64,000 bases of DNA, from NCBI RefSeq assembly GCF_053078305.1, contig NZ_CP166879.1; one strand, 5' to 3'. Of the stretch, positions 56,025 through 57,874 are shown one piece after another (the first letter of the stretch is position 1; each line of letters opens with the position of its first letter). Below the pieces are notes generated by a model, which was given only the letters and a program-made list of their open reading frames with translations, did not search any database and was not told the DNA's origin. The position numbers and the translations under genes are program-made.

Positions 56025-56945
56025 ATGATGAATAATAAAGTCAGCTTCACTAACAGCAATAATCCAACCATCTCTTTGTCTGCAGTGATCTATTTTCCTC
56101 CAAAATTTGATGAAACCCGTCAATATCCGGCAATTGTGGTATCTCACCCAGGTGGGGGCGTTAAAGAACAAACGGCCGGAACTTATGCCGAAAAACTGGC
56201 GGAAAAGGGATTTGTCACTATTGCTTATGACGCATCTTATCAAGGTGAAAGTGGCGGCGAGCCGCGTCAGTTAGAAAACCCATACATTCGTACTGAAGAC
56301 ATCAGTGCCGTGATTGATTACCTGACAACGCTTTCTTATGTCGACAATACCCGAATTGGTGCGATGGGAATTTGTGCCGGTGCAGGATATACAGCCAATG
56401 CTGCAATTCAGGATCGCCGCATCAAGGCCATCGGTACCGTTAGTGCGGTCAATATTGGTTCGATGTTCCGTAATGGTTGGGAAAACAATGTGAAATCTAT
56501 TGATGCCCTGCCATACGTTGAAGCGGGTTCAAACGCCAGAACCAGCGATATTAGCAGCGGAGAATACGCCATTATGCCACTGGCACCAATGAAGGAGTCC
56601 GATGCGCCGAACGAAGAACTGCGTCAGGCCTGGGAGTATTACCACACCCCTCGCGCGCAGTATCCAACAGCACCGGGTTACGCTACTTTGCGCAGCCTTA
56701 ACCAGATTATTACCTATGATGCTTACCATATGGCGGAAGTGTACCTGACTCAGCCGACGCAGATTGTGGCGGGCAGCCAGGCAGGGAGCAAATGGATGAG
56801 TGACGACCTGTACGATCGGGCATCAAGCCAGGATAAACGCTATCACATTGTTGAAGGCGCAAACCATATGGATCTTTATGACGGCAAAGCCTATGTGGCT
56901 GAAGCAATTTCAGTATTAGCTCCGTTCTTTGAGGAAACTCTGTAA
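56025..56945 (+). CDS. ycjY: Alpha/beta hydrolase, dienelactone-hydrolase-like with Cys nucleophile elbow
   Basis: 306 aa from MMNNKVSFTNSNNP (SD GAGGAA); elbow GAMGICAGAGY. Confidence 0.8.
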   Translation: MMNNKVSFTNSNNPTISLSAVIYFPPKFDETRQYPAIVVSHPGGGVKEQTAGTYAEKLAEKGFVTIAYDASYQGESGGEPRQLENPYIRTEDISAVIDYLTTLSYVDNTRIGAMGICAGAGYTANAAIQDRRIKAIGTVSAVNIGSMFRNGWENNVKSIDALPYVEAGSNARTSDISSGEYAIMPLAPMKESDAPNEELRQAWEYYHTPRAQYPTAPGYATLRSLNQIITYDAYHMAEVYLTQPTQIVAGSQAGSKWMSDDLYDRASSQDKRYHIVEGANHMDLYDGKAYVAEAISVLAPFFEETL

Positions 56946-57874
56946 TGAAACATATTCAAATCCGCAATAGTGATATGGCCTGGCATATTGCTGCCAATAT
57001 TCAGTTTCCACCAAATTTTGATGAGTCAAAACAGTATCCGGCGATTATCAGCGTCCATCCTTTTGGCAGTTGTAAGGAGCAGACGTCTGGCAATATCTAT
57101 GGCAAGGCATTGGCTGAAAAAGGCTATGTCGTTCTCGCTTATGACGCCAGTTTCCAGGGAGAATCTGGTGGGGAGCCTCGTTGGATAGAAGATCCGACAC
57201 AGCGCGTAGAGGATATTAGCCGTGTTATCGATTATGCAGTAACTCTGCCATATGTTGATGCTGAACGCATTGGCGTGCTGGGTGTGTGTGGGGGGGGTGG
57301 CTATGCCATTAATGCCGCGCTGACAGAAAAACGAATTAAAGCTGTAGTGAGTATTACGGGTGTTAATATCGGGCGTCTTTTTCGGGAAGGTTTCAGCAAT
57401 TACGATCCGATTGGCGCATTGAATGCAATGGCGTCGCAACGAACCAAAGAGGCTCGTGGTGGAGAATTACAGATCAACGAATTACTTCCCGCCAGCCTGG
57501 ATGCAGCAAAAGCCCATGGACTGACCGAACGCGATGTTTATGAAGCAACTGACTACTATAAAACACCACGCGGGCAACAACCGGGAGGTGCGACAAAAAT
57601 GTTGTTCTCACATGCACAGAAAACGCTGGCCTGGGATGCCTTCGCATTTACTGAAGTGTTACTGACTCAGCCGGTGATGGTAGTAGTTGGTGAAAAAGTC
57701 GGTGCCTTCGGTGCTTATCGTGATGGACTGGAAGTCTATGGCCGGGCGATGGTTTCGCAGGATCGTCAGTTAGTTTCATTACCCGATTTCTCACATTATG
57801 AACTGTATGACAAACCGGAAGCAGTTCAGGAGGCGCTGGAAAAAGTTATTCCTTTTTTCAACACCCATCTGTGA
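56945..57874 (+). CDS. Second alpha/beta hydrolase, tandem paralogue of ycjY
   Basis: 309 aa, clearly alignable with the upstream ycjY product (e.g. ...QYPAIISVHPFGSCKEQTSG..., elbow GVLGVCGGGGY); start overlaps the ycjY stop (TAATG). Confidence 0.75.
   Translation: MKHIQIRNSDMAWHIAANIQFPPNFDESKQYPAIISVHPFGSCKEQTSGNIYGKALAEKGYVVLAYDASFQGESGGEPRWIEDPTQRVEDISRVIDYAVTLPYVDAERIGVLGVCGGGGYAINAALTEKRIKAVVSITGVNIGRLFREGFSNYDPIGALNAMASQRTKEARGGELQINELLPASLDAAKAHGLTERDVYEATDYYKTPRGQQPGGATKMLFSHAQKTLAWDAFAFTEVLLTQPVMVVVGEKVGAFGAYRDGLEVYGRAMVSQDRQLVSLPDFSHYELYDKPEAVQEALEKVIPFFNTHL

Follow-up and report, generated by a model that had tools for sequence, protein, structure and literature searches.

The window, a stretch of 64,000 nucleotides from NCBI RefSeq assembly GCF_053078305.1 (contig NZ_CP166879.1), contains two adjacent plus-strand open reading frames, which we call hydrolase 1 (H1, identical to ycjY; positions 56025–56945, 306 codons followed by TAA, 306 amino acids) and hydrolase 2 (H2; 56945–57874, 309 codons followed by TGA, 309 amino acids). 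H2 is the full-length form of K-12 ymjD and is annotated in RefSeq as 'alpha/beta hydrolase' (WP_000680622.1). As a first-pass annotation of the same DNA had proposed, the two genes overlap in a TAATG (56943–56947, plus strand), in which the H1 stop codon (TAA, 56943–56945) and the H2 start codon (ATG, 56945–56947) have one base in common; a Shine-Dalgarno sequence for H2, GAGGA, lies at 56931–56935, 9 nt upstream of the ATG. Both products carry a cysteine where the nucleophile elbow would be expected, namely Cys117 within GICAGAG in H1 (codon 56373–56375) and Cys115 within GVCGGGG in H2 (codon 57287–57289), with candidate catalytic pairs Cys117/His281 and Cys115/His284, respectively.

The paralogy claimed by the first-pass annotation was borne out by pairwise alignment (BLASTP), in which H1 and H2 share 128 of 299 residues (43%, E 2e-72) over their full length, a similarity that, judged from the sequences, is far above chance. 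A recent or E. coli-specific tandem duplication was considered and rejected. Across Alpha- and Gammaproteobacteria, H1 is 67–93% and H2 64–89% identical to its own counterparts, while the two are only ~40% identical to each other, and the pair therefore does not stem from a recent duplication; H1 and H2 form separate ancient orthologous groups and, on these alignments, are ancient paralogues that have been co-inherited as a pair across Proteobacteria.

Conservation within the two groups is concentrated around the predicted active site. All 63 H1 orthologues have Cys117 and His281, all 61 H2 orthologues have the elbow Cys and the C-terminal His, and the GxCxG, YDAS-QGESGG and HxxLYD motifs are invariant in both sets. 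Beside the catalytic positions, each group has invariant residues of its own (HPGGGV in H1 versus HPFGSC in H2; A118 versus G116; N280-M282 versus S283-Y285), and the ortholog alignment of H2 shows a second invariant Cys, Cys43, within HPFGSCKEQ. D261/D260, a candidate catalytic acid by conservation, never varies within H1 and H2, yet in the wider family just 52 of 109 aligned representatives have Asp or Glu there; the Cys is found in 136 of 145 representatives of that family (50% clustering) and the His in 101 of 104. In line with the earlier proposal of a cysteine in place of the usual serine, the Cys of H1 and H2 falls, in alignments, on the GxSxG Ser of the solved serine hydrolases PET46 (8B4U), an MHETase (9PJB) and DcsB (7D78).

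H1 differs by four residues from the K-12 YcjY of PDB entry 5XB6 (E 1e-203), to which H2 is 43% identical over its full length (E 1e-68), and both match P. aeruginosa PA2218 (PDB 2HDW; E 2e-46 for H1, E 5e-41 for H2). Full-length homology and motifs place both proteins in the YcjY/PA2218 clade (COG1073-type, Cys form), which has 903 representatives at E<=1e-30. GxCxG and HxxxYD recur in homologues from Bacteroidota, Clostridium and Tetragenococcus, where the gene is single-copy. Membership of both in the alpha/beta-hydrolase fold superfamily is supported by matches to multiple Pfam alpha/beta families, identity to 5XB6, Foldseek and the combination of GxCxG with a C-terminal His. An AlphaFold2 model of H2, built from a 14-sequence alignment with mean pLDDT 61 (below 50 in the lid, 141–239), was used for core-strand order only; its top Foldseek matches in the PDB are all alpha/beta hydrolases, headed by the two uncharacterised structures, after which come generic esterases, lipases and thioesterases at 15–20% identity. 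The Pfam matches of H1 (S15, DLH, Abhydrolase) are partial, and since Pfam and NCBIfam matches of both proteins are partial or sub-threshold, no functional family can be assigned. Peptidase S9/S15 serine peptidases were rejected, the nucleophile position being Cys and the Pfam S15 and S9 matches only partial. Literature searches for ycjY, ymjD, 5XB6, PA2218 and COG1073 found no biochemical characterisation.

Upstream of H1, and divergent from it, lies pgrR (ycjZ; 54988–55887, minus strand), an annotated open reading frame for a LysR-type regulator. A putative PgrR operator, read from the sequence, occupies 55912–55954 and consists of the palindrome ATCATTTAAATGAT (55912–55925) and two GGTCTAATCA repeats (55927–55936 and 55945–55954). 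Downstream of H2 follows the gene of an NmrA-type SDR oxidoreductase (57895–58532, plus strand), the full-length form of K-12 ymjC, which is frameshifted in the window at the A-run 58272–58274 (AAA versus AAAA in others, a 1-nt deletion shared by 0 of 2924 genomes); the intact 212-aa SDR of strain PS10-3 is near-identical to PDB 3QVO. The SDR gene is followed on the same strand by a hairpin at 58551–58577 (12-bp stem, then UUUAUU; dG -16.2 kcal/mol, ViennaRNA), a weak candidate for a terminator, given that its U-tract is weak and a simple terminator scan missed it. Beyond it, annotated mpaA (murein tripeptide amidase; 58823–59551, plus strand) belongs to the flanking core DNA.

A repeat search showed that this set of genes is bounded by two 37-nt direct repeats, 32 of 37 positions being identical, at 54709–54745 and 58698–58734, with a spacing of 3989 nt. 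Just inside the left boundary, a 25-codon internal fragment of a queH-like gene was placed by exact match at 54816–54890 (minus strand); the annotations of PS10-3 and O157:H7 Z887 list it as an incomplete QueH pseudogene, and when sought as a possible donor marker in other loci of this type it was found at E. coli loci only. The GC3 of the enclosed genes is 0.40–0.46, compared to 0.51–0.54 in flanking genes (0.53 in mpaA), and one E. coli genome (strain EC17GD31) has an empty-site allele with a single repeat copy and mppA directly adjoining mpaA. Flanking direct repeats, an empty site in the same species and atypical composition are together the signature of an inserted islet. The open reading frames between the repeats in the window include no integrase or recombinase gene, and the repeats could mark a deletion hot spot instead of an insertion scar.

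The same unit, comprising a divergent LysR regulator (PgrR), H1, H2 and, in some cases, an NmrA-type reductase, was encountered in ~60 alpha- and gammaproteobacterial species and also on plasmids. In a scan of genome contigs, H1 precedes H2 in 59 loci and follows it in 5, and PgrR-like LysR orthologues (57–88% identity) are placed divergently, as here, at 47 loci from other species. Serratia, Klebsiella and Afipia carry this cassette, which is plasmid-borne in Klebsiella (IncF) and Agrobacterium; on the Klebsiella DNA it is flanked by recombinase/resolvase genes. The 1-nt overlap of the window is found again in Serratia, Klebsiella, Citrobacter and Shimwellia, in whose cassettes H1 ends at the coordinate where H2 starts. 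The cassettes of these four genera and of Pseudocitrobacter also have a near-invariant copy of the putative operator block between pgrR and H1. Accessory genes at these loci encode adh_short SDRs (n=19), NmrA-type SDRs (n=12), flavodoxin_4-like proteins (n=11) and OYE. Within ~8 kb, MppA, MpaA and YcjG are absent from all ~70 non-E. coli loci scanned.

In E. coli, by comparison, the cassette is being lost piecemeal, through a deletion within H2, a deletion in the reductase gene and, in the O157:H7-type allele, slippage in an H2 poly-G tract; in one genome the site is completely empty. The annotation of K-12 MG1655 lists ycjY, ymjD (66 nt) and ymjC (183 nt), and alignment agrees with the statement in the first-pass annotation that K-12 has an intact ycjY and a small remnant, ymjD, in the second position. 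This 21-aa remnant is the first 55 nt of H2 fused in frame to the last H2 codons, by an in-frame 867-nt deletion (57000–57866, plus strand) that is seen in alignments of K-12 and most E. coli genomes. A second deletion, of 663 nt (58034–58696, plus strand), removed the C-terminal two thirds of the SDR, the hairpin and the spacer from K-12-like genomes, leaving ymjC: K-12 matches the window over 57895–58033 and resumes at 58697, which puts the right edge of the deletion where the right direct repeat begins. Because ymjD retains both ends of H2 and both genes are present in the orthologous cassettes of other genera, the two-enzyme state is ancestral to that of K-12, as had been suggested. A full H2 is present in 1271 of 5426 complete E. 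coli genomes, and ~3900 match only its first 52–58 nt.

We consider it reasonably probable that H1 and H2 supply the enzymatic core of a small cassette that spreads horizontally, is controlled by a LysR regulator and is made up of divergent pgrR, H1, H2 and the NmrA-type NAD(P)H oxidoreductase. Both enzymes would be cytoplasmic hydrolases that form a covalent thioester acyl-enzyme on the Cys, activated by the His, and their specificities, different yet complementary, would be directed at a small ester, lactone or thioester. PgrR may sense the compound that serves as hydrolase substrate, and NAD(P)H-dependent reductases, given that SDRs, flavodoxin-like proteins and OYE are the recurrent accessory genes, might further process the hydrolase product. 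The published K-12 ycjY-ymjDC-mpaA operon would then most simply be a by-product of the insertion and of the later deletion of the 3' part of the reductase gene together with the hairpin, in which case a pathway shared with mpaA need not follow.

H1 and H2 could also form an obligate hetero-oligomer, with translational coupling setting the stoichiometry and neither protein working alone, although we rate this as rather unlikely. The two genes are adjacent in ~64 loci of two proteobacterial classes, overlapping by 1 nt in Enterobacterales and separated elsewhere by short spacers, whose lengths across species are crude since C-terminal lengths vary; the proteins are of equal size, and strictly conserved residues, both on the surface and in the active site, are particular to each. 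However, ~3900 E. coli genomes without H2 keep ycjY intact, its pairwise dN/dS being a suggestive 0.12–0.36 from only 3–19 substitutions, and K-12 YcjY was crystallised by itself, with 12 chains in entry 5XB6. In Photobacterium ganghwense, H1 and H2 lie in different units (LysR-H1-SDR and LysR-H2), a LysR-single hydrolase-SDR-OYE unit adjoins the H1/H2 pair on a K. variicola plasmid, and the homologues in Bacteroidota and Firmicutes are single-copy.

A second question is raised by the G8 tract of H2 (57290–57297, plus strand), which directly follows the codon of the candidate catalytic Cys (TGT GGG GGG GGT GGC). Among closely related complete genomes its length ranges from G7 to G11, and only two of these alleles are in frame, G8 and, with an extra Gly, G11; annotations give G7, G9 and G10 as frameshifted, and in the Sanger-sequenced O157:H7 Sakai the G9 allele makes ECs_1907 a pseudogene. 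O26:H11 has an interrupted tract (G5), and in other genera the run reaches at most five. A homopolymer within an open reading frame that is polymorphic in length among close relatives is what a phase-variable locus would display, and H2 might accordingly be a contingency gene that switches the second enzyme on and off in the O157:H7-type lineage. We regard this as unlikely, since few homopolymer contingency loci have been proven in E. coli, some of the length differences may be long-read assembly errors, and neutral decay fits equally well, H2 having been lost outright in most other lineages. The window itself may carry a homopolymer-length sequence error, because the intactness of H2 hinges on G8 and the next gene has the private A-run deletion. 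A broader proposal joins several of these ideas: a newly recognised, horizontally spread two-enzyme Cys-hydrolase system, acting as a hetero-complex or in consecutive steps on one small molecule sensed by PgrR, with PgrR misnamed a peptidoglycan-recycling regulator through a K-12-specific deletion and H2 of O157:H7-type strains turned on and off by poly-G slippage in the elbow glycines. As a whole, it seems to us a speculative and improbable combination.

From the position of the genes, the first-pass annotation had suggested a role in cell-wall peptide catabolism, and the PgrR literature likewise implies that H1 and H2 take part in murein-peptide recycling with MppA, MpaA and YcjG. The hydrolases adjoin these genes in all E. 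coli genomes with the cassette, the K-12 PgrR regulon comprises ycjG, ycjXF-tyrR and ycjY-ymjDC-mpaA (PMC5934670), over-expression of ycjY produces filaments (PMC3614548), and YcjY has been labelled '(putative) peptidoglycan degradation' (PMC12711010). Nevertheless, the positional argument is unsupported, because at the ~70 loci scanned outside E. coli the cassette has no mppA, mpaA or ycjG within ~8 kb and, in E. coli, is an apparent 3989-nt insertion between mppA and mpaA, bounded by direct repeats, with an empty-site allele in which mppA joins mpaA; the E. coli location of the hydrolases thus probably says nothing about their function. The regulatory data, moreover, all come from K-12, where the 663-nt deletion had removed the spacer and hairpin before mpaA; neither H1 nor H2 has a signal peptide; and mpaA, mppA and ycjG stay intact while H2 is lost in ~76% of E. 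coli genomes. Taken together, a role in murein recycling appears quite improbable, although a connection to the cell envelope may exist in E. coli, given the PgrR and filamentation literature (PMC5934670, PMC3614548).

It is highly unlikely that H1 and H2 quench quorum sensing as N-acyl-homoserine lactonases of the UilS/AidA type: the best NCBIfam match of both is the UilS lactonase model NF047920 (E 4e-25 for H1, E 1e-21 for H2), and UilS, itself annotated as a dienelactone hydrolase, has been found to degrade AHLs (PMC11633161), but scores of 89.2 and 77.6 bits, ~1/5 of the curated 400-bit cut-off, indicate distant kinship only and place neither protein in this equivalog family. That they are acyl-transferases or cPHB synthases instead of hydrolases is hardly credible, as the GXCXG box common to PHA synthases, on the strength of which ycjY has been put forward as a candidate cPHB polymerase (PMC3709699), is accompanied by no PHA synthase (PhaC) family in the Pfam or NCBIfam output and by a sole 31-bit match to a PHA depolymerase model with a cut-off of 150.

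E. coli databases and recent papers hold YcjY and PgrR to act in peptidoglycan degradation and recycling, on K-12 evidence alone. By the present comparison, K-12 carries a doubly deleted stump of the mobile cassette, and the real functional unit would be a regulator together with two Cys-type hydrolases and a reductase, a set that spreads without cell-wall genes; operon and regulon conclusions from K-12 may not hold species-wide. The search for substrates would be redirected to small esters, lactones, thioesters and redox-active xenobiotics, for which strains with intact G8 or interrupted-tract alleles would be the strains of choice, and the poly-G tract in the catalytic motif offers a natural knockout series in O157:H7. 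H1 and H2 themselves are uncharacterised members of a known enzyme type.

Among known systems, the likening of the pair to dienelactone hydrolases (PF01738, Cys-His-Asp) stands as an analogy of mechanism, the alpha/beta fold and a predicted Cys nucleophile at the elbow being common to both, but fails as a family assignment, even though O157:H7 Sakai ECs_1907 is annotated as 'dienelactone hydrolase'. The DLH profile matches in the N-terminal half of its 217 positions (model positions 11–123 for H1, E 6e-9; 10–129 for H2, E 6e-8), in both cases below Peptidase_S15, and not as the whole profile; compared to compact family members of ~235 aa, H1 and H2 are ~70 residues longer and have an inserted lid of ~90 residues (~141–239) absent from DLH, and no chloroaromatic or maleylacetate pathway genes were found near them. 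The UilS/AidA lactonases (NF047920) are the best curated-family match, full-length for H2, with scores too low for membership. Structures 5XB6 and 2HDW share GxCxG and HxxLYD with H1 and H2 and, deposited as uncharacterised or hypothetical proteins, give a fold but no function; PA2218 has an extra ~65 N-terminal residues, and the K-12 host of YcjY is without the partner enzyme. The K-12 'ycjY-ymjD-ymjC-mpaA operon', which PgrR controls (Shimada et al. 2013, as cited in PMC5934670), is identical to the window in locus and in regulator. The K-12 operon is nonetheless a doubly deleted derivative, in which ymjD and ymjC are what is left of a 309-aa hydrolase and a 212-aa reductase, and from which the second deletion has removed the hairpin and spacer that stand ahead of mpaA in the window.

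The window carries, in order, ynaI, mppA (minus strand), pgrR (54988–55887, minus strand), gene 1 (ycjY, 56025–56945, 306 codons), gene 2 (56945–57874, 309 codons), an NmrA-type oxidoreductase (SDR) gene starting at 57895, mpaA (58823–59551), ycjG (minus strand), tpx and tyrR, as judged from open reading frames and from how near-identical E. coli genomes are annotated. The stop codon of gene 1 (TAA) and the start codon of gene 2 (ATG) overlap by one base (TAATG, 56943–56947), with GAGGA placed 9 nt upstream of this ATG, and pairwise alignment of the two products, which contain GICAGAG and GVCGGGG respectively, showed 43% identity over their full length (E 2e-72). 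Since codon counts, overlap, identity and motifs all agree, the first-pass annotation of two adjacent, overlapping paralogues was right in every detail. Elsewhere in the window, between tpx and tyrR, a segment of ~35 nt (61117–61154) matched its own reverse complement in BLAST comparisons with other E. coli loci, and is probably a shared bidirectional terminator or a REP-like palindrome.

In profile alignments with three serine hydrolases of solved structure, PET46 (8B4U), an MHETase (9PJB) and DcsB, a thioesterase (7D78), the Cys of GVCGG occupies the very column of the Ser in GLSMGG or GMSFGG. Cys117 and His281 are invariant in 63 gene 1 orthologues, as are Cys115 and His284 in 61 gene 2 orthologues. 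Within the wider family (50% clusters, 903 representatives at E<=1e-30, the best 150 of which were examined), the nucleophile position is Cys in 136/145, and the candidate catalytic His is kept in 101/104; both motifs also persist in distant single-copy homologues from Bacteroidota, Clostridium and Tetragenococcus. Because of this alignment and strong conservation, a Cys-His catalytic centre on the alpha/beta fold is well supported at the sequence level for both proteins, in line with the Cys-type elbow proposed at first pass. The remaining representatives carry Gly or Ala (seven: P0158, P0175, P0193, P0213, P0219, P0232 and P0258) or Ser (two: P0161 and P0170), and may be pseudo-enzymes and Ser-type variants inside an otherwise Cys-type clade. 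A possible triad acid, D261/D260, is invariant in both orthologue groups, and is Asp or Glu in only 52/109 aligned representatives. Each group also has its own invariant residues beside the catalytic positions (HPGGGV in the gene 1 group vs HPFGSC in the gene 2 group; A118 vs G116; N280-H-M282 vs S283-H-Y285), which favours two distinct and maintained active sites over a single enzyme with a degenerate duplicate.

The pair is ancient and moves as a cassette. Gene 2 is 85–87% identical to Serratia and Klebsiella proteins and 77–83% identical to those of Mesorhizobium, Afipia, Agrobacterium, Paracoccus, Sphingobium, Brevundimonas and a Labilithrix MAG, and in Serratia marcescens, Klebsiella variicola and Afipia carboxidovorans a divergent LysR gene, a YcjY-like gene, a gene 2 orthologue and an NmrA-type SDR gene occur together. 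With one genome scanned per species, 70 loci emerged, and their open reading frames were compared one by one. The orthologue of gene 1 (H1, 67–93% identity) adjoins that of gene 2 (H2, 64–89%) in ~64/70, ordered H1>H2 in 59 loci and H2>H1 in five. A PgrR-like LysR gene is present in 47/70, an AraC-type regulator taking its place in 16/70 (for example in Pseudoalteromonas), and the recurrent accessory genes encode oxidoreductases (adh_short SDRs at 19 loci, NmrA-type SDR at 12, flavodoxin_4-like at 11, plus OYE). The pgrR-H1 spacer, which contains the palindrome ATCATTTAAATGAT (55912–55925) and two GGTCTAATCA repeats as putative parts of a PgrR operator, is nearly invariant across enterobacterial cassettes, indicating that the regulator and its putative operator travel with the hydrolases. 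The cassette occurs on IncF plasmids of K. variicola, K. pneumoniae and K. aerogenes and on an Agrobacterium plasmid, and on one K. variicola plasmid it lies beside IS1 and recombinase genes.

Several further arrangements were observed. On the K. variicola IncF plasmid NZ_CP103422.1 (locus L080, 952–7933), two LysR-controlled units adjoin, with recombinase genes on either side: LysR with a single hydrolase, an SDR and an NADH flavin oxidoreductase, then LysR with H1-H2, followed by IS1. Photobacterium ganghwense (locus L053) has, besides an H1-H2 pair, separate LysR-H1-SDR and LysR-H2-like units (103–3179 and 11313–13391), so that H1 and H2 can be used singly. Among plasmid and chromosome records (e.g. 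NZ_CP120564.1, NZ_CP141089.1), some E. coli plasmids hold a family member 52% identical to gene 2, and two E. coli records of 4.9 Mb that are filed as plasmids hold, elsewhere, a copy 62% identical to it; the E. coli pangenome therefore contains more paralogues of this Cys-hydrolase family. A 489-aa Logan-assembly protein (P0002) joins gene 2 (99% identity) to an NmrA-type SDR domain, and may be a genuine fusion by read-through or an artefact of assembly or of a frameshift.

In E. coli the cassette is an insertion. An imperfect 37-nt direct repeat (32/37 identical; 54709–54745 and 58698–58734, spacing 3989 nt) encloses a 25-codon queH-like fragment, pgrR, both hydrolase genes and the SDR gene. 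In strain EC17GD31, mppA adjoins mpaA directly across a 182-nt spacer with one repeat copy, and ~190 genomes match the region upstream of mpaA while having no ymjD or gene 2 match (5409 vs 5217). GC3 is 0.40–0.46 in the cassette genes vs 0.51–0.54 in the flanking mppA, mpaA, ycjG, tpx and tyrR. Given the repeats, the EC17GD31 allele and the GC3 contrast, the murein-peptide genes form a contiguous unit of their own, split by the cassette. The queH-like fragment (epoxyqueuosine reductase, internal; 54816–54890, minus strand, between mppA and pgrR) occurs in every E. coli allele examined and in no cassette locus of another species, and may be left over from the gene context of the donor.

Most E. 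coli have since lost gene 2, which is whole in 1271/5426 complete genomes; ~3900 hold just its first 52–58 nt. The common deletion (57000–57866, 867 nt, in frame) leaves the 21-codon ymjD, so the expectation that K-12 keeps ycjY intact beside a remnant was confirmed by alignment and by the MG1655 annotation, which agrees with both deletions (ycjY, ymjD, ymjC). The central part of the SDR gene was found in 2924 complete genomes, so that roughly 1650 have lost gene 2 only. A second deletion in K-12-like genomes (58034–58696) has cost the SDR its C-terminal two thirds and has also removed a hairpin (58551–58577, dG -16.2 kcal/mol) with the larger part of the spacer. In the K-12 locus (L004) its right end and the first base of the right 37-nt repeat meet exactly (58697/58698), suggesting that this repeat is a recombination-prone site.

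From the catalytic Cys codon onward, gene 2 of the window reads TGT GGG GGG GGT GGC, a G8 tract at 57290–57297 whose length varies from G7 to G11 among closely related complete genomes. G8 (this window, PS10-3, TR01) and G11 (NZRM4165, with one extra Gly) are in frame, while G7 (23S01245-7, annotated as such), G9 (O157:H7 Sakai, SS17, Z887) and G10 (AUSMDU00002545) are frameshifted, the Sakai copy being ECs_1907, an annotated pseudogene ('dienelactone hydrolase'). Gene 2 would thus either be undergoing inactivation by a second, independent route, tract slippage, or be phase-variable, both readings being consistent with the data. The Sakai genome was sequenced by the Sanger method, so at least the G9 state is unlikely to be an assembly artefact. 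The window's 71-mer around the tract is matched exactly by only 79/1272 genomes; in O26:H11 and most other carriers the tract is interrupted (G5), and in other genera the run has at most five G. The SDR gene of the window has AAA at 58272–58274 vs AAAA elsewhere, causing a frameshift and a stop at 58345–58347; of the 2924 complete E. coli genomes with that segment, not one shares this deletion. Either the mutation is private to this sequence or a homopolymer was misread, and in the latter case the G8 length, on which the open frame of gene 2 depends, is equally suspect.

Neither product has a signal peptide, as read from the sequences, and H1 and H2 would be two cytoplasmic Cys-His hydrolases with different pockets, controlled by a dedicated LysR sensor and often accompanied by reductases dependent on NAD(P)H or flavin. 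This arrangement would suit a pathway in which a small ester, lactone or thioester is hydrolysed and the product is then reduced; the literature searched yielded no substrate for any member of the YcjY/PA2218 clade, and this reading leaves unexplained the filamentation caused by ycjY over-expression (PMC3614548). Such a picture does not fit a peptidoglycan enzyme. The first-pass interpretation was thus half right: paralogy, the Cys nucleophile and the K-12 remnant stood, while a role in cell-wall peptide catabolism was not supported, as the cassette interrupts the murein-peptide genes and no relative of MpaA, YcjG or MppA lies within ~8 kb at any of the non-E. coli loci among the 70 scanned. 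An obligate H1-H2 complex is possible, but most E. coli genomes keep ycjY intact though they lack gene 2, YcjY was crystallised by itself, the distant homologues are single-copy, and both the separate Photobacterium units and the single-hydrolase unit beside the pair on the Klebsiella plasmid speak against it.

The polymorphism was already implicit in annotation (RefSeq 'alpha/beta hydrolase' for both genes, the Sakai pseudogene, K-12 ymjD and ymjC). In the literature searched we found no description of the conserved mobile regulator-H1-H2 unit, of its insertion signature in E. coli, of the poly-G tract in the catalytic elbow or of the consequence for the account of PgrR and peptidoglycan. A passage in PMC5934670 ascribes a 'ycjY-ymjDC-mpaA operon' to PgrR control; this K-12 operon was defined in a doubly deleted background. 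H1 and H2 are uncharacterised members of a known enzyme kind. Their Pfam matches are partial only (Peptidase_S15, DLH, Abhydrolase_1 and others), and the best NCBIfam model, the UilS AHL lactonase, scores 89 and 78 bits vs a cut-off of 400. The gene 1 product is YcjY, differing at four residues from the K-12 protein, whose structure was deposited as 'uncharacterized protein YcjY' (5XB6), and the E values of the gene 2 product are 1e-68 against 5XB6 and 5e-41 against PA2218 (2HDW), a hypothetical protein.
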